In this document: positions 22,358-57,817 of the stretch, piece by piece
Layout: the number at the start of each line of letters is the position of its first letter
Position numbering within the stretch: position 1 is the stretch's first letter
Assembly: GCA_041674925.1 (NCBI GenBank)
Contig: JBAYUW010000001.1
Coordinates: forward strand, 5,967 to 69,966
Length of the DNA stretch: 64,000 nucleotides
DNA from: Minisyncoccota bacterium
GTDB taxonomy: Bacteria; Patescibacteriota; Minisyncoccia; Phycocordibacterales; GWA1-40-21
Direction: 5' to 3'
The notes under the pieces: generated by a model
The model's database searches: none
Seen by the model: the letters and a program-made list of their open reading frames with translations, nothing else
Told to the model about the DNA's origin: nothing
Position numbers and translations under genes: made by a program

Positions 22358-22468
22358 TTAATTTTCCTGACCTAGAGATTATACACAATTTTATAAATAA
22401 ATCTAGCAATAACTCCAGACACTTTGTGTAGCATTCGCAGGCTTACTTGTGGTATAATATTTTTTATT

Positions 22469-22879
22469 ATGAATTGTATTAACTGTGAGAGGGAGGCCAA
22501 GACACGACATCAAATAAAATTTTGTTCAAATAAGTGCCAATTAAATTATCAGTATAAAATTTATATTAAATCCTGGAAATCGGGTAAGCAAGACGGCAAT
22601 AAAGGTATTTTAACCAAGGGTATGTCGGGGCATATAAGGAAGTATTTAATTGAAAAATATGGAGAAGCTTGTTCTATTTGCGGTTGGGATGAAAGATATA
22701 CGATAACAGGAAAAGTACCACTTGAAATAGATCATATCGATGGTAATTCAGATAACAATAATGAATCAAATCTAAGACTTATTTGTCCAAATTGTCATGC
22801 TCTAACACCTCATTTCCGAAATCTAAATAAGGGCAAAGGTAGAAAATGGAGAATAGAAATGATTAGAAGAAATAAATAG
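22469..22879 (+). CDS. HNH endonuclease (free-standing)
   Basis: CxxC...CxxC zinc knuckles at the N-terminus, then LEIDHIDGNSDNNNESNLRLICPNCHA (HNH/His-Me finger). The ORF is open from TTG 22424, and ATG 22469 follows a TGGTATAAT box. Confidence 0.85.
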   Translation: MNCINCEREAKTRHQIKFCSNKCQLNYQYKIYIKSWKSGKQDGNKGILTKGMSGHIRKYLIEKYGEACSICGWDERYTITGKVPLEIDHIDGNSDNNNESNLRLICPNCHALTPHFRNLNKGKGRKWRIEMIRRNK

Positions 22880-28141: not shown

Positions 28142-30775
28142 ATGCGTTATTTTTCCAAATATAATCCAAAATCTTTTTTTGTTGTTGGTCTAATTATTTT
28201 TGCGTTAAGCTTTTTTCTATCAAGTAGTATTTTTGCTGAAGGTCCGGGTTGTACTGACCCTTTGGCAATCAATTACAATGCCACTTCGACTATCGAAAAC
28301 GGTACCTGTACCTATCCGACTTTAACTGTTTCGACCTTAGGATCGCAATTACCGTCATTTGAAACTCCGATGAATCTTGATTTAGGAGGAGCTTTTACTT
28401 TTCAAACAGATGAAGGGTCGGTTGTTGTTAATGAAATAACCATCAAGCAGGTTGGATCATTTCCAATTGAATCAATAGGTGATGTAGAACTCATTTATGC
28501 CGAAAGCTCTGGTGGTGTTTGTGAAGACGTTGCGCCTAGTGGATCCAGTTTGGGAGGCGGAAATTTCGAAGAGGGTAATATTGTGACGATAAATAATGGT
28601 GAACCGATGACCGTTAGCACCATTAAAGTCTGTCTTTATGTTGTCTATAATACTTTACCCGACTCGACCGAAGATTTGCTTGGTTATTCAATTGATTTTG
28701 AAATTTCAACAGCCGAAGATATTGTTTTGTCGGCCGCTTCAGCCAACATTGAGATGAACGCACCGCTTAATATATCCGGTGTCAGTATTTTAACTGATGG
28801 ATCCATTACTACTTCATTACTATCATTAAAAATGGCTGATGAGACCAAAGACCCAACCGTTTTTTATTTGAAAGATGATTCAATTTGGAAAAAAGCGGGT
28901 ACTGGTACATCTACCCGTCTTACTAATTCGAATCTAATTGTTCAAGCTTTGGATTTTGAGAGATTAACTCGCTCGATTGGTGAAGGAATTGTGAGGATGT
29001 CGCTAACTATGTCTAATGTGGCGACTGGCACACCAGCTAGTTATCTAAATTTTGCTAAAACTTATACTACAACCGCCAGCACCCGCTCTAATATTTCAGG
29101 CTCATCAGTTACCTCGGTTCACACTGAAATTCTGCCAGTAATTATTTTGTCTGGAACGGCTAGTACGACAATTACTGTTGGTGATTCATACACTGATGCC
29201 GGAGCAACCGCGGTTGATGCTCTTGGTGTAAATATCACAAGTCTGATTGTGACTGGTGGTTTACCAATTAGTACGGTCGCGACTGGCACTCATCAAGTTA
29301 CTTACAATGTCACCGATGCTTATGGTAACTCCGCCACTCCAAAGACTCGAACCGTCACCGTTATCGCTTCTGAAACTGTACCCGACGCTCCAACTATCGG
29401 CACCGCTACTGCTGGTAATGCTACTTCAACCATCACTTACACCGCACCAGGTAATGATGGCGGTTCTGCTATACTTTATTATACAGTCACTTCTTCTAGT
29501 ACTGGAGCAGTTATTTCAGCTACAACTACTTCTTCCACAACAGCTACATTAACTGGCCTAACAAACGGCACCGCCTATACATTTAGTGTAAAAGCGACCA
29601 ATGCCATCGGTACTAGTGCTTCATCTTCAGCTTCAAATCCTGTTACTCCTGCAACAGTTCCCGGAGCTCCAACAATCGGTACCGCGACTGCTGGTAACGC
29701 TACATCAACTGTCACTTACACAGCTCCAGTTTCTAATGGAGGCTCACCTATACTGTATTATACAGTTACTTCAAATCCCGGAAGTATTTCTGCGTCGACT
29801 ACCAGTTCAACAACTGCAACTGTGACTGGTTTAACCAACGACACCGCTTATACCTTTACTGTTACCGCAACAAATGCCGCCGGAATCTCTACCTCATCTT
29901 CGGCTTCAAACTCTGTTACTCCAACCGCTCCAGCAACTTTCATGGTGGCCACTTGCCCAGGTACTGAAACAAATGATGGAGATTATAAAGTATGTAAATT
30001 TACAAGCTCAGGAACATTTACTGTTACCACATTAGGTGATGGCCTGGTAGATGTATTAGTTGTCGGTGGTGGCGGTGGTGGAGGTGGATATAATTACGCA
30101 GGTGGTTCAGGTGGTGGTGGTGGTGGTGGATACACGTCTACTACAAGTCTATCAATTTCTCTGGCGGCTCATAGTGTCACCGTCGGTGCAGGGGGAAGTG
30201 CTGGATCAAATGGAGCCCATGGAAACTCGGGCGGTGCTTCTTCTTTCGGAAGTTACATTTCTGTCTTAGGTGGAGGTGGTGGTGGGCGTAGTCCATTAGT
30301 AGCTGAGCAAGCTCCGTCTGGTGGTTCAGGTGGAGGGGGTGGTGGAAAAAGTGGATCAAAAACATCAACAGGTGGTGCTGGTACGTCTGGTCAGGGTTAT
30401 GCTGGTGGTACAGGAAAAGGATCCGTTAACAGTGGAGATGGTGGTGGTGGAGGAGGAGCTGGCGGTGCTGGGCATTATCAAGCTGGTTATGCCAATGTAG
30501 ATGGAGGAGCTGGTAAGGCTAATAGTATCACTGGTACTTCACTTTATTACGCTGGTGGAGGGGGAGGAGGAGGTGTGTATATCGCCGGAGGATTAGGCGG
30601 TTCAAGTGTTGGCGGACGCGGTTCAGGGCGTATGGAAGATTTGAACTCTTCAACTCCAACCGCTAATCGTGGAGGTGGAGGTGGAGGTGGAGCGCAGGAC
30701 GATAGTCCTGCCGTTTGGAGACCCCCATCATCAGGTGCTGATGGAGTCGTTATTATTCGGTATAAATACAAATAA
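28142..30775 (+). CDS. large secreted surface protein: N-terminal beta-rich region, Ig-like (DUF5011/HYR-type) domain, 2 x fibronectin type III, C-terminal glycine-rich domain
   Basis: Signal/anchor FFVVGLIIFALSFFLSSSIFA. The Ig-like segment is GDSYTDAGATAVDA...GTHQVTYNVTDAYGNSA. Two 93-aa FN3 repeats read PTIGTATAGNATST.TYTAP...LYYTVTS...TGLTN.TAYTF.V.ATNA.G. A GGGGG-rich tail ends in DGVVIIRYKY. Confidence 0.8.
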   Translation: MRYFSKYNPKSFFVVGLIIFALSFFLSSSIFAEGPGCTDPLAINYNATSTIENGTCTYPTLTVSTLGSQLPSFETPMNLDLGGAFTFQTDEGSVVVNEITIKQVGSFPIESIGDVELIYAESSGGVCEDVAPSGSSLGGGNFEEGNIVTINNGEPMTVSTIKVCLYVVYNTLPDSTEDLLGYSIDFEISTAEDIVLSAASANIEMNAPLNISGVSILTDGSITTSLLSLKMADETKDPTVFYLKDDSIWKKAGTGTSTRLTNSNLIVQALDFERLTRSIGEGIVRMSLTMSNVATGTPASYLNFAKTYTTTASTRSNISGSSVTSVHTEILPVIILSGTASTTITVGDSYTDAGATAVDALGVNITSLIVTGGLPISTVATGTHQVTYNVTDAYGNSATPKTRTVTVIASETVPDAPTIGTATAGNATSTITYTAPGNDGGSAILYYTVTSSSTGAVISATTTSSTTATLTGLTNGTAYTFSVKATNAIGTSASSSASNPVTPATVPGAPTIGTATAGNATSTVTYTAPVSNGGSPILYYTVTSNPGSISASTTSSTTATVTGLTNDTAYTFTVTATNAAGISTSSSASNSVTPTAPATFMVATCPGTETNDGDYKVCKFTSSGTFTVTTLGDGLVDVLVVGGGGGGGGYNYAGGSGGGGGGGYTSTTSLSISLAAHSVTVGAGGSAGSNGAHGNSGGASSFGSYISVLGGGGGGRSPLVAEQAPSGGSGGGGGGKSGSKTSTGGAGTSGQGYAGGTGKGSVNSGDGGGGGGAGGAGHYQAGYANVDGGAGKANSITGTSLYYAGGGGGGGVYIAGGLGGSSVGGRGSGRMEDLNSSTPTANRGGGGGGGAQDDSPAVWRPPSSGADGVVIIRYKYK
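29378..29926 (+). repeat. tandem 279-nt (93-codon) FN3-encoding repeat, 2 copies
   Basis: Copy 1 starts GTACCCGACGCTCCAACTATCGGC at 29378 and copy 2 starts GTTCCCGGAGCTCCAACAATCGGT at 29657. Both are in frame and roughly three-quarters identical by eye. Confidence 0.8.
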
Positions 30776-36964: not shown

Positions 36965-36993
36965 TTGACTTCTTATCTATTTGGGTGTATAAT
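36965..36993 (+). promoter_or_regulatory. conserved promoter module (copy C) driving GC-rich cassette B
   Basis: cCTTGACTTcttatctATTTGGGTGTATAAT: TTGACT, 17-nt spacer, TATAAT. About 26/31 identical to the modules at 56266-56294 and 57198-57226. Confidence 0.7.
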
Positions 36994-37054: not shown

Positions 37055-37519
37055 ATGACAAGACTGATGTTTTGGTCCTTGGTAACCTTGCTGGGAGGCG
37101 GGATGCTCGTCCTTGGTTTTATCAAAAAGAAAAACTGGCGGGCCCTTATGCTTTTCGGAGCCTTGTTTTTTATGGTGGGCGTACAGGTAATAGAATTTTA
37201 CCTCGAGCCCAAAGTATCACCAGTGAAGAATCAAGTTCAAATCGAGGCAGAAGATGGTTTTTTTGGCCTCGGCTATCTTCCGGTGGTGAGTAACAGCTAC
37301 TGCAAGTATAGTGGCGCGCATATGATCACCGTTGTGAATACCAACGATCCTGCTTTCCGAGCAGACTGTGTTGTTCGGGAAGAAGCAGAACATGATTCGA
37401 TCGTGTATCTGGCTAATGGAGAAGCGGTGGCTTATGTCGGTTTCCGACTTCTCGGTTCCGAGAGCAACAAGGTTTACTTCGTGTTGCGCGATGCCTATCG
37501 TCTGTACCCACTCAAGTGA
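37055..37519 (+). CDS. hypothetical 2-TM membrane protein, GC-rich ORFan (cassette B)
   Basis: GGAGG at 37042-46, 8 nt before the ATG. TM helices FWSLVTLLGGGMLVLGFI and ALMLFGALFFMVGVQVIEF, then a beta-rich soluble domain. 29/60 G+C at 37381-37440. Confidence 0.6.
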   Translation: MTRLMFWSLVTLLGGGMLVLGFIKKKNWRALMLFGALFFMVGVQVIEFYLEPKVSPVKNQVQIEAEDGFFGLGYLPVVSNSYCKYSGAHMITVVNTNDPAFRADCVVREEAEHDSIVYLANGEAVAYVGFRLLGSESNKVYFVLRDAYRLYPLK

Positions 37520-37576: not shown

Positions 37577-37659
37577 ATTGTAATTTTCTTAAACTGCCCC
37601 GTCTTTAGGAAATGAGGTCGGGAGGTGATTTTGAAAGTCTGTTGTGGTATAATAATCCC

Positions 37660-38187
37660 ATGTTCTCTGATCCGGAAAATAATATTCGACAACTATCTTT
37701 AGTCGATGGTATGCATGTGGCTGATTTTGGTTCGGGCTCAGGTTTTTATAGTCTAGCAATTGCCAAAGCCGTCGCTCCAACTGGGCGAGTTTTTGCTGTC
37801 GATATTCAAAAAGATTTATTGCAAAAGTTGAAAAACGGTGCGAAGCAAAGTCATTTAAATAACGTTGATATTATCTGGGGTGATTTAGAGCATTTAGGTG
37901 GCACAAAACTGCGAGAAAATTCGATGGACGCCGTGGTGGTCGCTAATCTCTTTTTTCAGATTCAAAATAAAGACGGATTATGTTTAGAGATTAAGCGAGT
38001 TTTGAAACCAAAAGCCCGCGTCTTGGTAGTTGATTGGTCTGCATCTTTTGGTGGTATTGGTCCTCAAGAAAATGATGTCGTGCCAAAAATCAACATGACG
38101 ACCTTGTTTCATGATCATGGTTTTACTTTGGATCGCGAAATCGCCGCCGGCGCCGAGCATTATGGTTTGGTTTTTAGAAAAAATTAA
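37660..38187 (+). CDS. class I SAM-dependent methyltransferase
   Basis: Motif I VADFGSGSGFYS, VFAVDIQ, and motif IV-like VVVANLFF. The ORF is open from 37612, but TGGTATAAT (37645-53) lies 6 nt before ATG 37660. Confidence 0.7.
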   Translation: MFSDPENNIRQLSLVDGMHVADFGSGSGFYSLAIAKAVAPTGRVFAVDIQKDLLQKLKNGAKQSHLNNVDIIWGDLEHLGGTKLRENSMDAVVVANLFFQIQNKDGLCLEIKRVLKPKARVLVVDWSASFGGIGPQENDVVPKINMTTLFHDHGFTLDREIAAGAEHYGLVFRKN

Positions 38188-38197
38188 TTTTAAATAA

Positions 38198-39505
38198 ATG
38201 AAGAATACTAAATTATTTCAATACGTCTTAATCGGTGTTTTCGTTTTCTTTATTATTATCGGGGCGATCATGTTTGCTACTTATCGTTCTACTAGTCAGT
38301 CCACAGCCGATATCAATATTTCTGTTTGGGGAACTTTGTCAGCAGATAATTTTGAATCTTTCGTTAATCGTTATTTTAATGATACAGAAATTAAATCTCA
38401 AGTTGAATATAAAGAAGTTGAGATTGCTGATTTTGATAAAGAATTAGTTGAAGCTCTCGCCAGTGGTGTTGGTCCAGACGCCGTCATCTTGCCAGAAGAT
38501 TTAATTGTGAGATATCGTAATAAAGTTTATCCAATCCCATACACTACTTTACCTGAACTTACTTTTAAACAAACCTATATTCAAGAGGGGGAGCTTTATT
38601 TGAATAATCAAGGTATTATCGCTTTACCATTTAGTCTTGATCCGTTAGTAATGTATTGGAATCGTGACATTTTTAACAATATTGGTGTGACTAAACCACC
38701 AGTCAGCTGGACCGAAATTTCATCATTGATTCCTAAAATTACTCAAAAAGATTCAGCTCAGAATATTTCTCGCAGCACCGTCGCGCTCGGAGAGTTTAGA
38801 AATATAAATAATGCCAAGGAAATACTGAGTGCTTTGATTATGCAAGCTGGTAATCCGATCGTTTCTTTAAATTTAGGCGACGATTCGTTGACTAGTGTTT
38901 TAGATAGTGATCTTAATCTTTCGAGTTTGCCCACCTCGGCCGCTTTGCAGTTTTATACCAATTTTTCTAATCCAGTGAAAAAAGAATATACCTGGAATCG
39001 CGCCCTGCCTTCTTCGCTCGATGCTTTTGCCAATGGTGATTTAGCCATATATTTTGGTTTTTCTTCAGAATATGTGAAAATTAAAAATAAAAATCCTAAT
39101 TTAAATTTTGATGTAGCCTTATTACCACAAGCTCAAGGCGCAAAGACTTACAGTACTTTTGGTAACATGTTAGGCTTGGCGATAATGAAGAATTCCGCCA
39201 ATCCGGCTGGTACCTACTCTATTATTTCGGCTTTGGCTAGTGCTCAAGCGGTACCATTTTGGCAAGATTTGTTTAATGTCCCTTCCGCTCGGCGAGATGT
39301 TTTGAGTCAAAATGAAAAAAACGCGGTTAAAACTATTTTCAATAAATCAGCCATCATGAGTCGTGGTTGGCTTGATCCCGACGGCATCAAAACCGGCACC
39401 ATCTTTCAAGAGATGGTCGAATCATACACCACCGGTCGCAGCACTCTCGATGAAGCCGTCATCACCGCCTCGGCCCGTTTAGATAGTTTGTTAAATAATA
39501 AATAA
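38198..39505 (+). CDS. extracellular solute-binding protein (ABC family-1 sugar-type SBP), TM-anchored, no cognate permease/ATPase adjacent
   Basis: N-terminal anchor YVLIGVFVFFIIIGAIMFA. ISVWGT..., GVGPDAVILPEDL, LPFSLDPLVMYWNRDIFNNIGVTKPPVSWTEI and LAIYFGFSSEY are typical SBP_bac_1 segments. Confidence 0.75.
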   Translation: MKNTKLFQYVLIGVFVFFIIIGAIMFATYRSTSQSTADINISVWGTLSADNFESFVNRYFNDTEIKSQVEYKEVEIADFDKELVEALASGVGPDAVILPEDLIVRYRNKVYPIPYTTLPELTFKQTYIQEGELYLNNQGIIALPFSLDPLVMYWNRDIFNNIGVTKPPVSWTEISSLIPKITQKDSAQNISRSTVALGEFRNINNAKEILSALIMQAGNPIVSLNLGDDSLTSVLDSDLNLSSLPTSAALQFYTNFSNPVKKEYTWNRALPSSLDAFANGDLAIYFGFSSEYVKIKNKNPNLNFDVALLPQAQGAKTYSTFGNMLGLAIMKNSANPAGTYSIISALASAQAVPFWQDLFNVPSARRDVLSQNEKNAVKTIFNKSAIMSRGWLDPDGIKTGTIFQEMVESYTTGRSTLDEAVITASARLDSLLNNK

Positions 39506-39506
39506 A

Positions 39507-39875
39507 ATGAAATCATTTTTTATAACTTTTTTAGTTTTAGTAATGCCGCTTACTGTTTTGGGAGCGACAGGCCTTGTCACTTGTGATGGGTCAGATTGCG
39601 ATATCGATGCTTTCATCAAAATGATCAACAATATCATTAACTGGATTATTGGAATTTCGATTACAATCTTTGCGATTTCTTTGATCTGGGGTGGTTTTCT
39701 CTATATGACCTCGGGGGAAAATACTGGTAATAAAGAAAAAGCCAAAACTATCATCTGGTCAACCCTGAAAGGGTTTGTTATAATATTAGTTGCTTGGGTA
39801 ATTGTTTACACAATATTAAATACTCTAGTTAAAGATCCAGGCTCCAACACAATATTTAAATTCCTGGAGGAATAA
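39507..39875 (+). CDS. VirB2/TrbC-like 'T4SS pilin' family small membrane protein (paralog 1)
   Basis: Signal peptide, then GLVTCDGSDCD, then TM, short charged loop (SGENTGNKEKAK) and TM. This matches the CPR pilin-like family architecture. Confidence 0.65.
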   Translation: MKSFFITFLVLVMPLTVLGATGLVTCDGSDCDIDAFIKMINNIINWIIGISITIFAISLIWGGFLYMTSGENTGNKEKAKTIIWSTLKGFVIILVAWVIVYTILNTLVKDPGSNTIFKFLEE

Positions 39876-39888
39876 AAATCAATATTTT

Positions 39889-40245
39889 ATGAAAACATTT
39901 TTCAAAAAACGCCTAATAATAAATCTACTTTCTTTTGTCATTCTCTTTTTACCAATGTTTCTATTTGCGGCCGAGACGATACATAACCCCTTAAAATCAA
40001 ACGATGTCAACGCTATTCTTGGAGATATTATGAAACTTGTGGCTACGGCTGGAGCAATTGTGGTCGTGTTTTTCATAATTTATTCTGGTTATAAATTCGT
40101 CACCGCGCGCGGTAATGAAAGCGAGGTGACAAAAGCCAAGGATATCTTCTGGGCTACAATTATTGGTGGGGCGATTTTATTAGGAGCTGATGTGATTGCC
40201 ACCGTGGTAATCAACACGGTTAGAACTACCACGGGAGCTCAATAA
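39889..40245 (+). CDS. VirB2/TrbC-like small membrane protein (paralog 2)
   Basis: Signal peptide ...LFLPMFLFAAE, TM, loop ARGNESEVTKAK, TM. Confidence 0.6.
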   Translation: MKTFFKKRLIINLLSFVILFLPMFLFAAETIHNPLKSNDVNAILGDIMKLVATAGAIVVVFFIIYSGYKFVTARGNESEVTKAKDIFWATIIGGAILLGADVIATVVINTVRTTTGAQ

Positions 40246-40265
40246 TTTTTAATTAATAAAATAAA

Positions 40266-40562
40266 ATGAATACACCGGATAATTTCAAAGAGCTAGTCCA
40301 AGATACTTTCATTGAGGGTATTTTAAATCCAATCGTGCCTTTTTTGATTGGTTTGGCGGTCGTTATGTTTATTTACGGAGTCTTACTCTTCATGTTTAAT
40401 GACGGTGGGGAAAAGAGGGAAGAGGGTAAACAATATATGATCTGGGGCATTGTCGGTATCTTTGTCATGGTTTCAGTTTGGGGTTTGGTAGCGATTTTGA
40501 CCGGTACTTTTCAATTAAACAATAGCGTACCGACAATCCAAATGAACGTACCGAATCTATAG
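40266..40562 (+). CDS. VirB2/TrbC-like small membrane protein (paralog 3, no obvious signal peptide)
   Basis: TM, loop NDGGEKREEGKQ, TM. Shares WGI.GIFVMVSVWGLVAIL with paralogs 4 and 5. Confidence 0.55.
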   Translation: MNTPDNFKELVQDTFIEGILNPIVPFLIGLAVVMFIYGVLLFMFNDGGEKREEGKQYMIWGIVGIFVMVSVWGLVAILTGTFQLNNSVPTIQMNVPNL

Positions 40563-40649
40563 GGGTAGTTGCCACTTTTTTATAATAAGTTATAATTACA
40601 CAGTAAATAAAAGGTCGGATAATAAAATTTTACCAATAAAAATAATTTC

Positions 40650-41018
40650 GTGAAAAAAATAGCAAGTTTAATCTCAGCCATAGTTTTGCTTCTCCCAATG
40701 ATTGGATCAGCCGCGGTGAACTCAACTTATTTTACCGATGTGATCAAGGAAGGATCAAAGGTGTTGAATGATCTGGTGATTTTCTTGGTTGCCTTGGCTG
40801 TCGTCTGGTTTATTTGGAATGTGATTCGTTACACCCTAGCCGATGATGAGGAAAAAAAAGGAGCAGCTAAAATGCAGATGGTTTGGGGTATTATCGCTAT
40901 TGCGGTCATTGTTTCGGTCTGGGGCTTGGTAGCTATCTTAAGAAATATGTTTGGGGTTGATAATAATAGTGCTATTCCCACCAGAGAGATAAATAGTATG
41001 ATTCCTCAGGTTCGATAA
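40650..41018 (+). CDS. VirB2/TrbC-like small membrane protein (paralog 4)
   Basis: GTG start. Signal peptide, then ALAVVWFIWNVIRYT-LADDEEKKGAAK-...WGIIAIAVIVSVWGLVAIL. Confidence 0.6.
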   Translation: MKKIASLISAIVLLLPMIGSAAVNSTYFTDVIKEGSKVLNDLVIFLVALAVVWFIWNVIRYTLADDEEKKGAAKMQMVWGIIAIAVIVSVWGLVAILRNMFGVDNNSAIPTREINSMIPQVR

Positions 41019-41053
41019 TGTTTATTAATTTATTAGTTTTAATTAAAAAAAAT

Positions 41054-41410
41054 ATGAAGAAGTTTGTGAAAGTTATTGCCGGTTCCGCTTGGGCTCTGCC
41101 ATTTGTGGCTTTAGCTCAAGAAGCTAACGCTAGTTATATTAGTTCGCTTATTGATAGTGCCAAGACTGTCTTGGACCAATTGGTGGTCTTTTTAATTGCT
41201 TTAGCTGTCGTTTGGTTCATTTGGAACGTCATTCGCTATACTATGTCCTCTGATGAAGAGAAGAAAGGTGCGGCAAAGGGTCAGATGATTTGGGGTATTA
41301 TCGCTATTGCGGTTATTGTCTCAGTTTGGGGTTTGGTCGCCATCTTACAAAGCCTATTCGGAGTTGGTAATACCAGCGCTGGTGATGTCGGTGGTCTTTT
41401 GCCTCAATAA
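41054..41410 (+). CDS. VirB2/TrbC-like small membrane protein (paralog 5, recent duplicate of paralog 4)
   Basis: The core is identical to paralog 4 over ALAVVWFIWNVIRYT, DEEKKGAAK and WGIIAIAVIVSVWGLVAIL. The DNA differs mostly at synonymous sites. Confidence 0.6.
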   Translation: MKKFVKVIAGSAWALPFVALAQEANASYISSLIDSAKTVLDQLVVFLIALAVVWFIWNVIRYTMSSDEEKKGAAKGQMIWGIIAIAVIVSVWGLVAILQSLFGVGNTSAGDVGGLLPQ

Positions 41411-41412
41411 TT

Positions 41413-41676
41413 ATGAATTCCTCATCATCAATCGGAGATTATAACACCCTTTTGATTAGTATTTTAGAGAATATTGGTAATCCTCTTGTTACCCTAATGT
41501 TGGGTGTGGCGGTGGTTTACTTTCTCTACGGAGTATTCGTCTTCGTCCGTAATGCCGAAAGTCCGGAAAAAAGGAAGGAGGGTGGAATGCATATACTTTT
41601 TGGAGCTCTGGGTCTATTCATTATGATCTCGGCCTATGGAATTATAAATTTGATTTTGGGCACGATGGGGAAATAG
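41413..41676 (+). CDS. VirB2/TrbC-like small membrane protein (paralog 6)
   Basis: TM, loop NAESPEKRKEGG, TM. The N-terminus resembles paralog 3. Confidence 0.55.
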   Translation: MNSSSSIGDYNTLLISILENIGNPLVTLMLGVAVVYFLYGVFVFVRNAESPEKRKEGGMHILFGALGLFIMISAYGIINLILGTMGK

Positions 41677-41690
41677 AAATAAGTTAAAAT

Positions 41691-41722
41691 AAAAACACCT
41701 AGTAAATTTACTAGGTGTTTTT
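41691..41722. terminator. perfect 32-nt palindrome, bidirectional terminator
   Basis: AAAAACACCTAGTAAA|TTTACTAGGTGTTTTT lies between the pilin array (+) and tRNA-Leu (-). Confidence 0.8.
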
Positions 41723-41730
41723 ATTTTGTT

Positions 41731-41814
41731 TGGTGCGCGGGAGAGGACTTGAACCTCCATGGGTCACCCCGCTTGCTCCTAAGGCAAGTGCGTCTACCAT
41801 TTCGCCACCCGCGC
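41731..41814 (-). tRNA. tRNA-Leu(UAG)
   Basis: The reverse complement is GCGCGGGTGGCGAAATGGTAGACGCACTTGCCTTAGGAGCAAGCGGGGTGACCCATGGAGGTTCAAGTCCTCTCCCGCGCACCA. It has a long variable arm, anticodon loop CUUAGGA and an encoded CCA. Confidence 0.9.
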
Positions 41815-42091: not shown

Positions 42092-44044
42092 GTGAAGGAA
42101 TGCCATCGTCACCAACACCTGATTCAGAGGATGAATTACAGCCTGCCAGTCTGGCAGAAATCAGAGAGCTTGCGAGGGAGGCTGAAAGCAGATCGATTGG
42201 TAAAAACAGAAGAAGAACGTCTGTTGAGGAACCTGAAGAAGAAGAACCCACTCCAGTTGCTCCACCGATCACTGAACCAGTTGCTGAGGCTTCACCTGCT
42301 GCCCCAGAGACTGTTCCTGCTGCTCCGGTTACCCCCGGAACCAATTCCAGTTCCTCCCCCCACCCCTGAACCGACTCCTGAAAGTGTTCCAGAACCCAAA
42401 AAGTTAGCAAGACTACCAAAACAAGAAGCGCCAAAACCTAAGGGGCGTGTTATGGCCGATCCAGACGTCGTCGGTCGTGATCCATTGGTTGCTAAAGGTA
42501 TTAGGGATTTTAGTAAGACAGGAAAAGATGCATTAAAAAATAATCCTTTGATGGCTGATTCATTAAATGCTTTTAATAATACAAGTGAAAAACCAAAAGT
42601 TGAAGCAAAAAGAGCACCTGGAACTCCTCCACCACTACCAAACACACCTACAACACCAAAACCACCTGAGGCTGGTCCAAGAAGACCAGAAGTAACACCT
42701 GAGGCAGATCCACGTGTTATATTGAATTCACACAATCGTAGTTTTTTTGGTCGAATGTCTGAGGGGGCGAAAAATCTAGCGAGAAAAGCTTATGAAGGCT
42801 TGTATAAAATTCCATTAGTCAATCGAATTGTCGGTAAAATGGAAATTGCTTATCACCAATTTTGGGCGGATGAACATGAACAAAAAGCTAAAAGTTTTAA
42901 ACTGAAATTAGATACGATTGATCAGGAAATCGCAGCAATGAATGCTGCCAAAGATGAGACTGTCGCTCTTTATGAAAAATTAGAGGCTGGTAAAGTCCTA
43001 GGTAGTACTGAGGACAAAGAAAGTATGATAAGAAAAGCGGACGCGGAAATTAGCAAACTTTCAACTAAACGACAAGAACAAAATGATGAGTTCATAAAAT
43101 ACAATAGTCGAACAATTCGAAGTATTAGTGAACGTGATCGAGTAGCGGATAAATTGATCGACCGTTATCAAAGTAAACTAAAGCCAATCGAAGCTGAATT
43201 GGCTGGATTTAAAGACCTGCAGGCCGAATACTCCCTAGAGGCCAAAAAACTTGAAGCTGATAATGCAATACAAGAACAAACTTTTGTTGAGCTGGAACAG
43301 ACCAAAATAAGATTAAAAGAAAAGCTTACCGCTTTGGGTTATTCTGACAGAGAGGTTGCTAAAAAGCTTATGAATACTGAAGAAACGGTCACCAGGGGGC
43401 GTAATGAAATTCAAAAATCTAAGGATAACATGGCAAATAAACAGAGAGAAGTCGAGCAGGCGATTGCCGCGACACTTGAAAAAGTTAATCCATATAGACA
43501 AAAACGAGATGAATTTTTGCGCATTAAAGAGAACCGTCCAATCAAGATGAACCCTGCACCATCTAGACAACCAAAAGGATATTCTGGTCTGGATATGATA
43601 ACAGATAACTACGTATCGTCTGATGGTGAAAGAGTCGAGACCTCATCTACATCTACATCTGAGTCAGAGTCTGAGGTAGAACCAGAAGCAGTAGAGGTTG
43701 AAACACAGGAATCAGCAGAAACGAAAGAAAAGCAGCCGACTATCAAAGTTGGTACCCTGATCGAGATGTGGAATAATTTTCTTAAAACAATTGGAAATGA
43801 CCGTTGGACAAATGGAGAAGAAAAGATAAAAGATAAACTGATTGTCTTAAAAGACTTTCTAAATAAGAGAAAGTTAAGCAAGGATCAAGAACTTGACTGG
43901 GAGAATGTTCGAACAAATCTCAGGGGGTATTATTATAAGGATAAGAAATTACCTGTAGATAGTCTCAGTAGTTTTAATCGAAATCTTGAGAAATTTATTA
44001 CGGACAACAAAAATCCTAATATCATAAAAAATGACAAACGATAA
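42092..44044 (+). CDS. hypothetical Pro-rich / long coiled-coil protein; N-terminus probably encoded in the other frame from ATG 42088 (apparent +1 frameshift at C5 run 42332-42336)
   Basis: Two frames overlap. The frame from 42088 gives MSEGMPSSPTPDSEDEL...PAAPVTP. The other frame continues PPEPIPVPPPTPEPTPESVPEPKK, then about 330 aa of heptad-rich sequence, an acidic S/E stretch and a K-rich tail. No catalytic motif. Confidence 0.5.
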   Translation: MKECHRHQHLIQRMNYSLPVWQKSESLRGRLKADRLVKTEEERLLRNLKKKNPLQLLHRSLNQLLRLHLLPQRLFLLLRLPPEPIPVPPPTPEPTPESVPEPKKLARLPKQEAPKPKGRVMADPDVVGRDPLVAKGIRDFSKTGKDALKNNPLMADSLNAFNNTSEKPKVEAKRAPGTPPPLPNTPTTPKPPEAGPRRPEVTPEADPRVILNSHNRSFFGRMSEGAKNLARKAYEGLYKIPLVNRIVGKMEIAYHQFWADEHEQKAKSFKLKLDTIDQEIAAMNAAKDETVALYEKLEAGKVLGSTEDKESMIRKADAEISKLSTKRQEQNDEFIKYNSRTIRSISERDRVADKLIDRYQSKLKPIEAELAGFKDLQAEYSLEAKKLEADNAIQEQTFVELEQTKIRLKEKLTALGYSDREVAKKLMNTEETVTRGRNEIQKSKDNMANKQREVEQAIAATLEKVNPYRQKRDEFLRIKENRPIKMNPAPSRQPKGYSGLDMITDNYVSSDGERVETSSTSTSESESEVEPEAVEVETQESAETKEKQPTIKVGTLIEMWNNFLKTIGNDRWTNGEEKIKDKLIVLKDFLNKRKLSKDQELDWENVRTNLRGYYYKDKKLPVDSLSSFNRNLEKFITDNKNPNIIKNDKR

Positions 44045-44471: not shown

Positions 44472-45188
44472 TTACCCATGCCTCTTCATTATTTCGACTA
44501 TTTTGTTCGATAACCTATCTGGCCGTACAGATAAATACTCTTTAAACTTATTGTATTTTCTCCTTGTAAATAATCTCCCCTGGACATTATTATACATAAA
44601 TTCGAATAATTTAACAGTGTCATTTGTACCATAGCGTAATTGATAAGATCTGTGACTTTTATAGATTCTAAATTTAGTATCTGTAACTTTTGTTAGTACC
44701 TTACCTAATCCGTTTAAAAAATCCTTGCTTCCACTGGTAATTGCGACCAGAAGTCTTTTGTACATTAACCTACCATTTTTATCTTGCGATTTTTCTAGAT
44801 AGATACAACCATCACCATCAAAATAACCTCTAATAAAATGGTGAATTACTGGTTTTGGTATTTTTGGGAAAATCATTGTGAATGTTTTATTTGGGTATAA
44901 ACCAAGTTTATTTAATCGATTAAACAATTTATGGCTACCTATTCGCAGTATATACCTTATCTTTCTAGCGCTTGTTATTGGCGGTAAAATAACAATTTTA
45001 TGTTTAGAACCCATAAGCCTCTTGAATAGATAAATTCTGTCCTTATCAATACTAGTAATCGATATGTATTTTGCTCTTATATCTTTACAATCAGATAGGC
45101 AACCGTCGGCATATAAGTATCCCAGTATATAGGCCATTTCAGGTTTCCAGATATTGAAGAACTTCTCATTGATTTTATGTTTTGACAC
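44472..45188 (-). CDS. LAGLIDADG family homing endonuclease (two-motif, free-standing)
   Basis: Two dodecapeptide motifs, AYILGYLYADGCL and IRGYFDGDGCIYL, about 100 aa apart. The stop codon lies 3 nt from the tRNA-Cys 5' end. Confidence 0.85.
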   Translation of the reverse strand: MSKHKINEKFFNIWKPEMAYILGYLYADGCLSDCKDIRAKYISITSIDKDRIYLFKRLMGSKHKIVILPPITSARKIRYILRIGSHKLFNRLNKLGLYPNKTFTMIFPKIPKPVIHHFIRGYFDGDGCIYLEKSQDKNGRLMYKRLLVAITSGSKDFLNGLGKVLTKVTDTKFRIYKSHRSYQLRYGTNDTVKLFEFMYNNVQGRLFTRRKYNKFKEYLSVRPDRLSNKIVEIMKRHG

Positions 45189-45238: not shown

Positions 45239-45568
45239 CTAATTTTTTATTGTGATTTCGTCAATTCTTTGTCGGTGTTTTTCCCCTCGATCAATATCGA
45301 AATGAAAAAAGGGCATTCGGCCAATTTTCACCTTTTTGCCGAGGAATTCGCGGAACTCACTCAGTTGTCGACGAGCAAACTCAAGAGCCGCTTCCTGTTT
45401 GCTTTCTGGTAAGACGGTAAAAAGAATGGTGGCCTCTTTAGCATCTGTGGAAATTTTAACGTCGGTGACCGTGATCAAAGAATTACCGTTGGATTCTCTC
45501 TGCAAGAATTCCGCCGCCCATTTCTTGATCTGATCTTTTAATTTTTCATCTCTAAATGTTGTAGTCAT
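45239..45568 (-). CDS. rbfA: ribosome-binding factor A
   Basis: LITVTDVKISTDAKEATILFTV..., a KH-like fold of 109 aa, immediately downstream of infB as is usual. Confidence 0.85.
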   Translation of the reverse strand: MTTTFRDEKLKDQIKKWAAEFLQRESNGNSLITVTDVKISTDAKEATILFTVLPESKQEAALEFARRQLSEFREFLGKKVKIGRMPFFHFDIDRGEKHRQRIDEITIKN

Positions 45569-47084: not shown

Positions 47085-47555
47085 TTATTTTTCATCGATC
47101 GATCCTTGAGCTTTGTTTAGAGCTTCTTTTTCTTCGGCGGTTAATTCTCCTTGTTCCGATATCATATTTTTGATCGGTTTGGAAAAGACACTGACATGAT
47201 CACGAGAATACATACTTGAGATGACGACACCATTCTTTTCTTCATTAAGGAAAGCTGTGGCGAAACTTTGATTACCACCCGAACCATCACCCTTGAAAGG
47301 ATTAAATCTGATTGTCTCAACCCCAGACACAGTCTTCTTTAAACGGGCATCATGATTTTGAAAAGTCTTTTCCGCTAAAGCTTTAAATTTTTTCAAGTCA
47401 GCGATTTCTTTCTCAAGCAAGGCAAAAGATTCATCTAGATTTTTTGTCTTACCGACGAGTAATTCTCCCAGTTTATTTTGTAGCCAAATGACCCAAATAA
47501 AGAGAATAACTATGACCAGCGCCAAGGCGCCTAAGATGTATATTTCAAACTCCAT
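47085..47555 (-). CDS. DUF4446-like membrane-anchored protein
   Basis: N-terminal TM, a coiled coil, then RFNPFKGDGSGGNQSFATAFLNEEKNGVVISSMYSRD, which is characteristic of DUF4446. Confidence 0.65.
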   Translation of the reverse strand: MEFEIYILGALALVIVILFIWVIWLQNKLGELLVGKTKNLDESFALLEKEIADLKKFKALAEKTFQNHDARLKKTVSGVETIRFNPFKGDGSGGNQSFATAFLNEEKNGVVISSMYSRDHVSVFSKPIKNMISEQGELTAEEKEALNKAQGSIDEK

Positions 47556-56304: not shown

Positions 56305-56372
56305 GTAGCTGGCCTAGCTATTTGGATTACATAACGAGCAATTGTATTTTTGTCGGCCGCAAGCTTACAAAA

Positions 56373-57119
56373 ATGTCCGCAAGACTATGGTCCCGAAAAA
56401 AGGCAGAGAAAGAGATAGTTGACATGAATGCTCATGGCGAAAATATCGACGACTTGCTCGGTCTGGTTGATCCCGAACTCGTGCGATCGTACGGACGAAA
56501 CCGTCTAAGTGATGGAATGAATCTGGCGCAGGTTAACGACAAGTATAAGGAAGTCGAACAGAAACTGGTGGTTCTTGCACGTCGACACAAAATGCTTTTA
56601 CTCTGTGTTGTCACAATGCTTCCCATCAGTTTTCTTGCTTCTGTGTTCATGAAATCACCTGGCCTCGGCATTGTGTTGGCGTGCATATTGGCGCTCGGTT
56701 CGAAATTCATTGACAATCTATATGTTCGGGCAGAAGATCGGATCGGCACACTTCGGCACTCACTCGTGGCGGATCTCAAGACCTTCAGGAATGCTACGGA
56801 GGCGCTGAAGAGCCCGATCGGGCGGACGATGCGTGAGTATACGGCGGCCTCGACCCGTGACAATTTGATCACGTGCGCGGTTCGGATACTCGACGCGGAA
56901 GCCAAGCTCGATGAGGTGCGCTTCATGACGAATCGGCGGTTGCATGATCTGGTCCACTACAGCAACTGGTTGATGCGTTGCCAAGAGGAGCAGAAGAAGA
57001 TCGAGGAGGGAATCAAGGTCTTCGGTCTGAAGTTTGATCGTTCGGAGATATTCGCGGAGGCTCGCAAGCACAACGCGCGCGTCGACGCCGAGATTCAAAA
57101 AGGGATCGACGGTAAGTAA
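56373..57119 (+). CDS. hypothetical 2-TM membrane protein, GC-rich ORFan (cassette D)
   Basis: The ORF is open from TTG 56322; the first ATG is 56373. The central hairpin MLLLCVVTMLPISFLASVF / GLGIVLACILALGSKFI is flanked by helical cytoplasmic domains. 36/60 G+C at 56761-56820, versus 19/60 at 55861-55920 in rnhB. Confidence 0.55.
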   Translation: MSARLWSRKKAEKEIVDMNAHGENIDDLLGLVDPELVRSYGRNRLSDGMNLAQVNDKYKEVEQKLVVLARRHKMLLLCVVTMLPISFLASVFMKSPGLGIVLACILALGSKFIDNLYVRAEDRIGTLRHSLVADLKTFRNATEALKSPIGRTMREYTAASTRDNLITCAVRILDAEAKLDEVRFMTNRRLHDLVHYSNWLMRCQEEQKKIEEGIKVFGLKFDRSEIFAEARKHNARVDAEIQKGIDGK

Positions 57120-57139: not shown

Positions 57140-57168
57140 GGGTACCTCTTCACGGAGGTGCCCTTTTT
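57140..57168 (+). terminator. GC-rich intrinsic terminator of cassette D
   Basis: GGGTACCTC-ttcac(g)-GAGGTGCCC followed by TTTTT. Confidence 0.8.
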
Positions 57169-57188
57169 AATACTTAAATTTGAATATT

Positions 57189-57236
57189 TTAAAAAGCTTG
57201 ACTTTTAATCCATTTGGGTGTATAATTGTATGTAGA
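57189..57236 (+). repeat. direct repeat copy 2 (promoter module; partner at 56257-56304)
   Basis: Contains AAAAAGCTTGACTTTTAA, the same string that encodes the rnhB C-terminus and stop in copy 1, but here it is non-coding. Confidence 0.85.
57198..57226 (+). promoter_or_regulatory. conserved promoter module (copy B) driving the GC-rich Nudix cassette E
   Basis: TTGACT (57198-203), 17-nt spacer, TGTATAAT (TATAAT at 57221-26). Confidence 0.7.
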
Positions 57237-57298
57237 AAGATAAGAACAGGTTTCCTGTGTGGGAGGCCTTTGACAGCAATTCCAATTGGAGATTCAGC

Positions 57299-57817
57299 AT
57301 GAATAACGTGATTGAGAAGCCGAGTCATTTTTCGGCCGGACTTTTTCTGCACCGACGTACCGATGGTAGTGGTCTCTATGACACGATCGGCGTCACCAAG
57401 CATCGGTTTCCGGATGGCGTACAGATGCCTGGTGGCACGAATCGACGTTGCCTCTGGGAAGTGCCAGAGATGACCTTGGAGCGCGAGTTCGCGGAAGAGA
57501 CCGGATATCGTCCGGTGTCTTATAACCTCCTGCTGTCTAGGGAGTTTGGGGATGGAGGGCATACCCAGAACTTTTTCGTCATCAAGCAGGCTGTCGGTCA
57601 CTTTAACGGTCCACGGACTTTTACTGAGACTGATGGAGAGATGGTGGAGGTTCGGATTTGGGAACTCGGTGAATTTCATCGCCACCTCTGCCCGACCCAT
57701 CGGCCAGCCTTTCTGAAGGCATGTCAGGTGTTGATCCGCGTAGACGTGTCGTTTCGCAGGAATTATCCCGAGATCTGCGATGATGTCCGCGCCGCCGAGT
57801 ATCGGCAAGAGTTCTGA
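57299..57817 (+). CDS. Nudix hydrolase, GC-rich (cassette E)
   Basis: The Nudix box at 57431-57508 is GGTNRRCLWEVPEMTLEREFAEETGY (Ex7REUxEExGU intact). GGAG lies 7 nt before ATG 57299 (the ORF is open from GTG 57257). 34/60 G+C at 57421-57480. Confidence 0.75.
   Translation: MNNVIEKPSHFSAGLFLHRRTDGSGLYDTIGVTKHRFPDGVQMPGGTNRRCLWEVPEMTLEREFAEETGYRPVSYNLLLSREFGDGGHTQNFFVIKQAVGHFNGPRTFTETDGEMVEVRIWELGEFHRHLCPTHRPAFLKACQVLIRVDVSFRRNYPEICDDVRAAEYRQEF

Follow-up and report, generated by a model that had tools for sequence, protein, structure and literature searches.

Why should a gene for a membrane-anchored solute-binding protein (SBP) be followed directly by six small pilin genes? The question is raised by positions 38198-41727 of a 64-kb stretch of DNA (the window, by which we mean the whole stretch analysed), part of a 91-kb contig from a metagenome-assembled genome (MAG) of Candidatus Paceibacterota. 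By Pfam, the gene content of the window is of the housekeeping kind, with GyrB, GyrA, ClpB, SMC, IF-2, aminoacyl-tRNA synthetases, enzymes of glycolysis and ribosomal proteins. An earlier note on this DNA, made from the letters alone, had described the block as an SBP gene with a set of diversified pilin-like genes and had suggested a surface fibre that displays or cooperates with the binding protein. We found that the SBP and its pilins form an ordered module that recurs in many species and whose members co-evolve, and we suggest that the pilins may build a heteromeric structure of the T4SS (type IV secretion system) kind with which the SBP works.

The SBP and the six pilins of the window

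The SBP gene (38198-39505, plus strand) encodes 435 amino acids. Its product is anchored by an N-terminal transmembrane (TM) segment and has a MalE-like fold of the CUT1 type for oligosaccharide binding. The protein matched the Pfam families SBP_bac_8 (E = 3.8e-17) and SBP_bac_1 (E = 1.4e-15), and its sequence-profile matches were likewise of the CUT1 type, with the usual conserved motifs present. The AlphaFold (AF2) model (pLDDT 80.8, pTM 0.79) showed a two-lobe body preceded by a TM helix (residues 4-31), the linker between them being poorly predicted, and comparison of this model with the PDB by Foldseek returned at the top the SBPs for manno-oligosaccharide, cycloalternan, sophoro-oligosaccharide and cyclodextrin together with MalE, at E values of about 1e-20. 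More than 2,000 relatives were present in a protein collection, every one labelled Paceibacterota, Parcubacteria or Patescibacteria, and sources annotate relatives as 'ABC-type glycerol-3-phosphate / multiple sugar transport SBP'. When one genome per species of the GTDB was scanned, at least 514 species representatives encoded a relative.

The TM anchor (38207-38290, plus strand; residues ~4-31) contains four nearly invariant residues, F7, F15, G22 and F26, which are conserved in 100%, 99%, 96% and 95% of 80 species, respectively. The conservation score of the TM segment (0.59) was as high as that of the globular part (0.57), compared with 0.32 for the linker (residues 28-43). Judged from their spacing, the four residues are estimated to lie on one face of the helix, suggesting that the anchor may serve as a helix-helix contact surface. 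The SBP also has many invariant aromatic and polar residues (W44, Y71, D94, Y153, W154, N155, W171, Y264, W266, N267, Y285 and W391).

Six small open reading frames (ORFs) follow on the same strand, the first beginning 1 nt after the SBP stop codon, just as the earlier note had described. These are pilin A (39507-39875, 122 aa; PF18895 E = 5.3e-10), pilin B (39889-40245, 118 aa, with a signal peptide; 1.1e-7), pilin C (40266-40562, 98 aa, without a signal peptide and with an acidic N-terminal tail; 2.3e-10), two copies of pilin D, and pilin E (41413-41676; 1.5e-7), which at 87 aa is the shortest and also lacks a signal peptide. The first copy of D (40650-41018, 122 aa; 4.4e-10) has a signal peptide. 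The second, D' (41018-41410; 5.9e-10), is 130 aa in its longest form and 118 aa from the ATG at 41054, which is likely the true start. The two copies are 57% identical and represent a recent tandem duplication, and identity of the window paralogues to the first pilin is 19-30%.

The assignment to a pilin family, proposed without any database search, held up well. All six ORFs scored 31.9-40.9 bits against the T4SS_pilin family PF18895, whose gathering cut-off is 26.6, and of 120 orthologues taken from 24 other species, 118 matched the same family at E<=1e-3. Matches to the TrbC/VirB2 family PF04956 at E<=1e-3 were found for 26 of these 120 (best E = 2.7e-8). Pilin A of the window matched PF04956 with E = 2.5e-4 and 21.6 bits, under the cut-off of 27.9, the first pilin of locus L074 exceeded this cut-off with 32.1 bits, and the position-2 genes of L005 and L006 have precomputed PF04956 TrbC matches. 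Five of the six window pilins also came close to the NCBIfam family NF045849, 'Mbov_0395 family pilin-like conjugal transfer protein' (E 1e-7 to 1e-9, 31-38 bits, cut-off 40). These near-matches bear on a published claim that MPF-FATA systems are without VirB2-like pilins.

Hydropathy, alignment and the AF2 model of pilin A agree on a topology in which a short loop rich in K and E connects two long hydrophobic helices, confirming the common topology with an optional signal peptide that had been noticed from the translations. A signal-peptide-like leader with an AxA-type site precedes the hairpin in ORFs 1, 2, 4 and 5, and in its place ORFs 3 and 6 begin with a short acidic tail. In the model of pilin A, a signal helix is followed by a hairpin of helices 33-68 and 73-109 (36 and 37 residues) with a 4-residue loop. 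Two finer sequence claims had to be amended. The GLVxC..xxC segment, which contains the Cys pair of pilin A (CDGSDC) and had been taken as typical of T4SS pilins of the candidate phyla radiation (CPR), turned out in alignment A3 to be a signature of one ortholog group, A, in which residues G22, V24, C26, D27, G28 and C31 are invariant. The SVWGLVAIL helix, attributed to paralogs 3-6, is present in ORFs 3-5, and ORF 6 has merely a related version of it.

Order, co-evolution and fusions

The earlier note had proposed a comparison of synteny in other CPR genomes as a check, and we carried it out on the best 80 loci of the species scan, whose SBPs are 42-65% identical to that of the window. The genomes carry names such as Taylor-, Zambryski-, Nomura-, Campbell- and Wolfebacteria, Paceibacter and similar. 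Pilin ORFs were found in these loci with an iterated hidden Markov model built from the six window pilins. The block recurred in the 80 species loci examined, and every locus with enough downstream DNA had 3-7 pilin ORFs directly after the SBP and on the same strand. Homologues at 67%, 62% and 49% identity showed the same order, in which a metallo-beta-lactamase (MBL)-fold gene, GyrA, the methyltransferase and the SBP are followed by 3-6 PF18895 genes. The genes past the array vary among loci, and insertions, for instance of a restriction-modification system, can separate GyrA from the methyltransferase. What stays tightly together is thus the SBP with its pilins. Many loci with Paceibacteria-type synteny (L008, L017, L018, L020 and others) come from records (TPA_asm MAGs) with the title 'uncultured Candidatus Saccharibacteria bacterium', a name that is probably generic or mistaken.

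Reciprocal-best-hit clustering divided the pilins into exactly five groups, A-E, with a strong positional bias. The groups differ in consistent traits: A has a leader and the Cys pair, B a leader, C is often duplicated, D has a leader, and E is short and leaderless. The best hit of window ORF 1 was the first pilin in 73 of 78 loci, and all 69 members of group A stood first. The best hit of ORF 2 was second in 66 of 77 loci and that of ORF 3 was mostly third; group C occupied the third position in 63 of its 96 members. For ORFs 4 and 5 the best hit was penultimate in 51-58 of 74 loci (51/74 for copy 1), and for ORF 6 it was the last pilin in 67 of 77. The array architectures were ABCDE in 24 loci, ABCCDE in 12 and ABCDDE, the type of the window, in 10, in addition to minor variants. 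Three loci contained single ORFs with two PF18895 domains (L023:12550-13281, L054:13567-14304 and L055:12275-13210), which are either pilin-pilin fusions or merged frames.

Median identity within the groups was 33-42%, highest for E (42%), compared with 43% for the SBP. Since the pilins diverge within groups about as much as the SBP does, they are not hypervariable. They are old, individually conserved and specialised subunits and not fast-varying copies, so the description of freely 'diversified' paralogs has to give way to five old ortholog groups in a fixed order.

We then asked whether the SBP and the pilins evolve together. Partial Mantel tests were performed on pairwise distances with the GyrA distance controlled and 999 permutations, a procedure that removes phylogenetic non-independence incompletely. 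The SBP was correlated with A (r=0.49), D (0.38), E (0.34) and B (0.26) at p=0.001 each, and with C at r=0.14 (p=0.02). There was no such correlation between the SBP and the methyltransferase (r=-0.01, p=0.56) or the MBL-fold gene (r=-0.04, p=0.81). The methyltransferase correlated with the MBL-fold gene only (r=0.30, p=0.001), its correlation with the pilins being about 0 and not significant.

In three species (L028, L037 and L068) the SBP and pilin A are encoded as one in-frame ORF, in which a non-hydrophobic linker takes the place of the pilin signal peptide. This is what one would predict with the body of the SBP and the N-terminus of the pilin both lying outside the cell. The SBPs of the three fusions are mutually 66-71% identical. 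An apparent SBP::pilin fusion in L055 was discarded as an artefact of a masked N-run, and a search for the fusion junction in a collection of 5.8 billion proteins returned no further SBP::pilin fusions; it returned pilin A orthologues only, extended forms among them. The fusions and the co-evolution indirectly support the suggestion that the SBP works with the pilins, and the displayed fibre itself remains an inference.

Pilin A is also the subunit that carries additional domains. First-position pilins were found with an N-terminal subtilase Peptidase_S8 domain (L069:4722-6347), a Kre9/KNH Ig-like N-terminal domain (L075:9462-10394) and a Cys-rich, Dickkopf_N-like N-terminal region (L070:1445-2194). 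In P0125 (L090:10001-10906), P0128 and P0135, pilin A has a beta domain resembling Fn3 or the purple-acid-phosphatase N-terminal domain, together with a Pro-rich linker, and in P0138 and L074 the N-terminal extension has no domain assignment. The SBP gene still lies upstream of the payload-bearing pilin A wherever the context could be checked. N-terminal extensions of at least 100 aa were present in 6 of 76 pilins at position 1, in 0 of 77 at position 2 and in 2 of 75 at position 3. By these sequences, pilin A behaves as a scaffold that would present binding or enzymatic modules outside the cell. VirB2-type 'modular pilins' of this kind appear to be undescribed so far.

Transcription and neighbouring genes

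The spacing of the genes suggests how the block may be expressed. The median gaps are 4 nt between the SBP and A, 14 between A and B, 5 between B and C and 11 between D and E, compared with 105 nt (interquartile range 87-129) between C and D. In most species a TTGnnn-16/17-TATAAT element lies ~57 nt before the D ORF, and in the window a promoter-like site in the spacer before pilin D (40569-40596, plus strand) reads TTGCCA-16-TATAAT and matches the consensus at 11/12 positions. Among 59 C-D spacers, 44 had a promoter match of at least 9/12, where shuffled sequences averaged 24.3 and never exceeded 34, and 39 contained an exact TATAAT (shuffles: mean 16.6, maximum 25). A second promoter-like site of the window (36965-36993, plus strand; TTGACT-17-TATAAT, 11/12) lies 5' of orf154, the methyltransferase and the SBP, and between it and the SBP start there was no plus-strand promoter match of comparable strength. 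This site is a possible start of the upstream transcript. Taken together, the consensus matches point to two expression units, in which SBP-A-B-C would be read from upstream and D-E from a promoter of their own.

The block ends in a perfect palindrome, given as 32 nt in the earlier note and in fact 42 nt long (41686-41727), with a 19-bp stem, a 4-nt loop and U-runs on both strands. Back to back with it lies a tRNA-Leu gene (41731-41814, minus strand) that is convergent with the block, and the palindrome is likely a bidirectional intrinsic terminator common to both. An Rfam scan of the window returned tRNAs only, with no RNA element within the SBP-pilin block.

The gene immediately upstream encodes a class I methyltransferase dependent on S-adenosylmethionine (37612-38187, plus strand; Pfam Methyltransf_31/25/11) and ends 10 nt 5' of the SBP. 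It adjoins the SBP in 73 loci, overlapping it by 4 nt in 14, and is missing in L046, L073, L079 and L086. The methyltransferase is probably co-transcribed with the SBP, and its matches in NCBIfam were generic and all sub-threshold. We considered it as a possible modifier of the SBP or the pilins and rejected this candidate, since it does not co-evolve with them, follows the housekeeping neighbours, is absent beside the SBP in four loci and matches no specific family; we regard it as a housekeeping neighbour outside the SBP-pilin module. The small gene orf154 (37055-37519) was also rejected as a part of the module, being lineage-specific with homologues in the same contig only.

Several other features of the window may be recorded here. 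An 877-aa protein encoded between gyrB and an S1-domain gene (28142-30775, plus strand) combines by Pfam an Ig-like domain of the bacterial type with two Fn3 domains and a Gly_rich_2 domain at the C-terminus, and is likely a large surface protein or adhesin. Directly 3' of the tRNA pair that follows the block, a 650-aa protein (42092-44044, plus strand) without Pfam or NCBIfam match has a Pro/Glu-rich N-terminus and a remainder that is charged and, by eye, coiled-coil-like; it has a homologue in 1 of the 80 related loci and is thus lineage-specific. A LAGLIDADG_3 endonuclease ORF (44472-45188, minus strand) adjoins the same tRNA-Leu/tRNA-Cys pair and an HNH endonuclease ORF (22424-22879, plus strand) adjoins tRNA-Thr, both possible homing-endonuclease remnants in a reduced genome. 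Between 56000 and 58000 the G+C content rises to 0.487, compared with ~0.39 elsewhere, and overlapping ORFs without Pfam match lie on both strands of this stretch (56322-57119, 57167-57808 and 57257-57817), in which nothing was found in Rfam at the gathering threshold.

Possible functions, known systems and significance

What, then, might the module do? The reading we favour, to which we give an even chance of being right, is that the pilins form a heteromeric VirB2-type (T4SS) surface fibre or envelope-spanning conduit and that the membrane-anchored, oligosaccharide-type SBP works with it. Pilins of the VirB2 type are stored as membrane hairpins and pulled into the pilus by a VirB4-dependent machine. 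In such a fibre, all pilins of the module would insert as hairpins with both the N- and the C-terminus outside. D and/or E, separately promoted, would be the abundant shaft subunits that make up the bulk of the fibre or conduit, and A, B and C, co-transcribed with the SBP, would be low-copy initiator or tip subunits comparable to type IV minor pilins. The SBP would contact pilin A, possibly through F7, F15, G22 and F26 of its TM helix, placing a glycan-binding domain on the fibre or at its base, where it may bind an oligosaccharide of the host surface or of host origin and so serve in attachment, in recognition of the host or in the capture of material. Polymerisation would be carried out by a VirB4/TrsD/VirB3 machine encoded elsewhere, near dnaA. 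In a bolder version, a 'bacterial bindosome', pilin A would be the universal payload adaptor of the VirB2-type fibre, and the SBP would ride on the fibre, recognise the envelope of the host or capture glycans derived from it, and pass material to the T4SS conduit for uptake; we consider this version rather improbable.

Several observations weigh against a secretion-type fibre, the assembly and function of which we infer. The earlier note had reported no VirB4, VirB6 or VirD4 gene and no ABC permease or ATPase gene in the 64 kb, and our Pfam scans agree. The scan of the window covered ORFs of at least 100 aa outside the block, minus short overlapped ORFs and a few others (e.g. 45239-45568 and 47085-47555), and returned housekeeping genes or no match, with no ABC_tran, BPD_transp, VirB4, VirD4 or TrbL. 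There was likewise no VirB4, VirD4, VirB6 or ABC importer gene at contig positions 1-78 kb of 91 kb, so that 38 kb upstream of the array (~40 coding sequences, CDS) and 32 kb downstream (~30 CDS) are free of VirB4, VirB6 and VirD4. No VirB4, VirB6, VirD4, VirB3 or TrsD was found within 10 kb on either side in the 80 loci, in which ORFs of at least 450 aa were clustered and ten representatives scanned (for two or three larger clusters and for some of the singletons, with MurJ, RelA/SpoT, a penicillin-binding protein, leucyl-tRNA synthetase and an exporter-type ABC protein among them). The link to a T4SS machine comes from family membership and from the literature. No structure in the PDB matched the pilin A model in Foldseek at E<=0.001, where a helical hairpin discriminates poorly (an Aeropyrum conjugation pilus, 8dfu, came second with E=1.7 and TMt 0.63, and ATP-synthase c subunits scored similarly), and profile searches of PDB sequences matched no solved pilin to the window pilins. 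The SBP has the look of an ordinary CUT1 protein with strong conservation, and an ABC partner for it could still be encoded elsewhere in the genome. Adjacency by itself says little, since the whole MBL-GyrA-methyltransferase-SBP region is syntenic across the clade. A block that recombines or is transferred as a unit might also produce the Mantel signal, and the SBP::A fusion probably goes back to one event.

Five distinct ordered subunits with a co-evolving SBP fit a defined hetero-oligomer better than a homopolymer, and the module might encode a membrane complex of fixed stoichiometry with ~11 TM helices, including that of the SBP. Such a complex would serve as a docking platform, channel or sensor with the SBP as its receptor, either independently of any T4SS or as the membrane entry port of a T4SS for uptake. 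It would account for the nearly invariant residues of the SBP helix and for the lack of a nearby assembly ATPase; SBPs usually hand their ligand to a membrane partner, and ATP-synthase c-type hairpin oligomers match the pilin model about as well as pilins do. Nonetheless, the family to which the subunits belong is that of VirB2/TrbC pilins, and the separate D-E promoter suggests unequal stoichiometry. The large enzymatic and Ig-like payloads on A, together with very high pilin expression (PMC10936435), fit a surface structure better. We consider a membrane complex possible, if unlikely. We know of no transporter of such a build, which also counts against it.

The SBP may instead serve simply as receptor to a conventional ABC importer of sugars, with permease and ATPase encoded elsewhere, and the adjacency of its gene to the pilins would be an inherited gene order without common function. 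Its sequence, fold and conserved motifs are typically CUT1/MalE-like, its relatives are labelled as ABC-type sugar transport proteins, the region keeps its order generally, synteny including GyrA, the MBL-fold gene and the methyltransferase as well, and the gene searches were confined to the contig and the examined loci. However, the SBP co-evolves with the pilins and not with the other neighbours after species divergence is removed, the gaps of 1-4 nt and the overlaps point to coupled translation, in-frame fusions with pilin A are kept in three species, and the conservation of the TM anchor resembles that of a contact surface. Importer genes were also not recognised within 10 kb of the SBP in the neighbourhoods checked, by means of precomputed Pfam tables (L001-L007 and L090/L091) and the ten representatives described above, permease- and ATPase-size ORFs being mostly unscreened. 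On balance we hold the importer explanation to be improbable. A 609-aa ORF with an ABC_tran domain at residues 372-525 lies ~8 kb 5' of the SBP in L039 (41-1870) and three further loci (4/80); it reads as a fused exporter type and not as an importer partner of the SBP. The pilins have also been open to an interpretation as interchangeable variants that serve antigenic variation or host-range versatility, as with Bartonella and Anaplasma. An identity of 19-30% to the first pilin is comparable to the published mean of 25% (PMC12102498), C and D are duplicated in a lineage-specific manner, and the payloads of pilin A differ among species. Against this, each paralogue has an orthologue at the same position in most of ~70 species, divergence within groups is about that of the SBP, and signal peptide, Cys pair and length consistently set the five groups apart. 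We therefore rejected antigenic variation for this clade on positional orthology and regard it as very improbable.

How does a heteromeric fibre compare with what has been described? Quinonero-Coronel et al. (2025) found VirB2-like pilins (PF18895, PF04956) in 1,948 Patescibacteria assemblies, 1,135 of them near virB4, and reported arrays of 2-11 tandem genes, which were read as Bartonella/Anaplasma-like antigenic or host-range variation (PMC12102498). The window array resembles these in matching PF18895 and more weakly PF04956, in its tandem divergent small pilin genes, in its monoderm CPR host and in the lack of a relaxase context, and its six genes fall within the published range of low-identity arrays, the D/D' pair at 57% excepted. 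It differs in that the published arrays lie in or near a virB4 cluster (within 20 CDS), the legend of Fig. S9 counting a 'VirB2 array near virB4' (PMC12102498), whereas the window array has no virB4 nearby, follows an SBP, keeps a five-group order across species and begins with a modular pilin. A series of six pilins inside a T4SS cluster was essential in Southlakia epibionticum, a Saccharibacterium (Wang et al. 2023; PMC10633639). The claim that the arrangement is undescribed stands in part only, since pilin arrays have been published (PMC12102498; PMC10633639) and the link to an SBP is what the searched literature lacks. In that literature, which was searchable but incomplete, no paper tied VirB2-like pilins to an SBP, an absence of evidence only, and neither 'solute' nor 'substrate-binding' occurs in the text of PMC12102498. 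With respect to the literature searched, the tandem array itself is known, and the SBP linkage, the fixed five-group order, the modular pilin A and the site away from virB4 are new.

The published loci also suggest where the assembly machine could be. VirB4/TrsD/VirB3 are usually encoded near dnaA in Paceibacteria, and in the Paceibacteria T4SS loci of Table S3 a single PF18895 gene lies next to virB4-trsD-virB3 (PMC12102498). Table S1 of PMC12102498 gives as VirB4-positive assemblies of the Taylor-, Zambryski-, Campbell- and Wolfebacteria, candidate phyla in which the module was found. Campbellbacteria assemblies have a run of three 'FATA_PrgF' hits at a distance from virB4, as in GCA_000990745.1 with genes 174-176 and virB4 at gene 619 (PMC12102498 Table S3); the triplet may be an SBP-linked array typed as PrgF. 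ParB lies ~32 kb downstream of the array here and ~8 kb downstream in L006, placing the array near the origin, and the published position of virB4 near dnaA may not be very far from it.

Outside the T4SS pilins, there is a likeness in organisation to the minor-pilin operons of type IV pili and type II secretion systems (fimU-pilVWXY1E, gspHIJK), which also combine ordered low-identity paralogues with a large non-pilin binding protein (in type IV pili a tip adhesin), in which the presumed major subunit is transcribed apart, and in which one pilin carries grafted extracellular modules. Type IV pilins, which depend on a PilB/PilC ATPase and platform, differ completely in fold, with one helix at the N-terminus, and carry a signal peptide of class III, whereas the window encodes VirB2-type hairpins; the analogy is of organisation only. 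The window contained no PilB/PilC-like gene, and the N-terminus of the SBP, with its 28-residue TM helix, showed by eye no prepilin-type site. A conceptual precedent for the cooperation of SBPs with pilus machinery is the Sulfolobus bindosome (Bas; PMC4371748), in which sugar SBPs are assembled at the surface by means of small pilin-like proteins together with machinery of the pilus type, improving the capture of substrate where a periplasm is lacking. The bindosome is archaeal and non-homologous, and its SBPs have type IV pilin signal peptides and depend on PilB/PilC homologues, whereas the window SBP has an ordinary TM anchor, VirB2-type pilins and no evident ABC transporter. Bindosome SBPs still feed ABC transporters. 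Compared with CUT1 SBPs such as MalE, UgpB, CpMnBP1 (4r9f/4r9g) and Lmo0181 (5f7v), the SBP shares the SBP_bac_1/8 profile and the predicted two-lobe oligosaccharide-binder fold, and differs in having no adjoining permease or ATPase in the checked loci, in the pilins that always follow and co-evolve with it, and in its invariant anchor residues. The NF045849 pilins of Mycoplasma integrative and conjugative elements are likewise small two-helix membrane proteins, of monoderm MPF-FATA-type conjugation; the window pilins score under the cut-off of that family and have no nearby VirB4, and nothing in the window or the contig is suggestive of a mobile element.

The role of the T4SS in CPR bacteria is an acknowledged open question; its function was called 'completely unknown' in a 2024 perspective (PMC11665869), and it was essential in the one species tested (PMC10633639). 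In Paceibacterales that parasitise methanogens, T4SS pilins are among the top-expressed secreted-protein genes in metatranscriptomes (PMC10936435). Paceibacteria are the largest CPR class, and the module offers concrete handles on the role of the T4SS there. It corrects two published impressions, namely that the arrays sit near virB4 and that they mainly serve versatility or antigenic variation. If the 'bacterial bindosome' version were right, the fibre would be an ABC-free organelle for nutrient acquisition or host docking, giving the CPR T4SS a concrete and testable role (PMC11665869). The set of five pilin subunits, the subunit that carries additional domains and the co-evolving sugar-type SBP suggest a device for contact with the host that has a glycan-recognition component.

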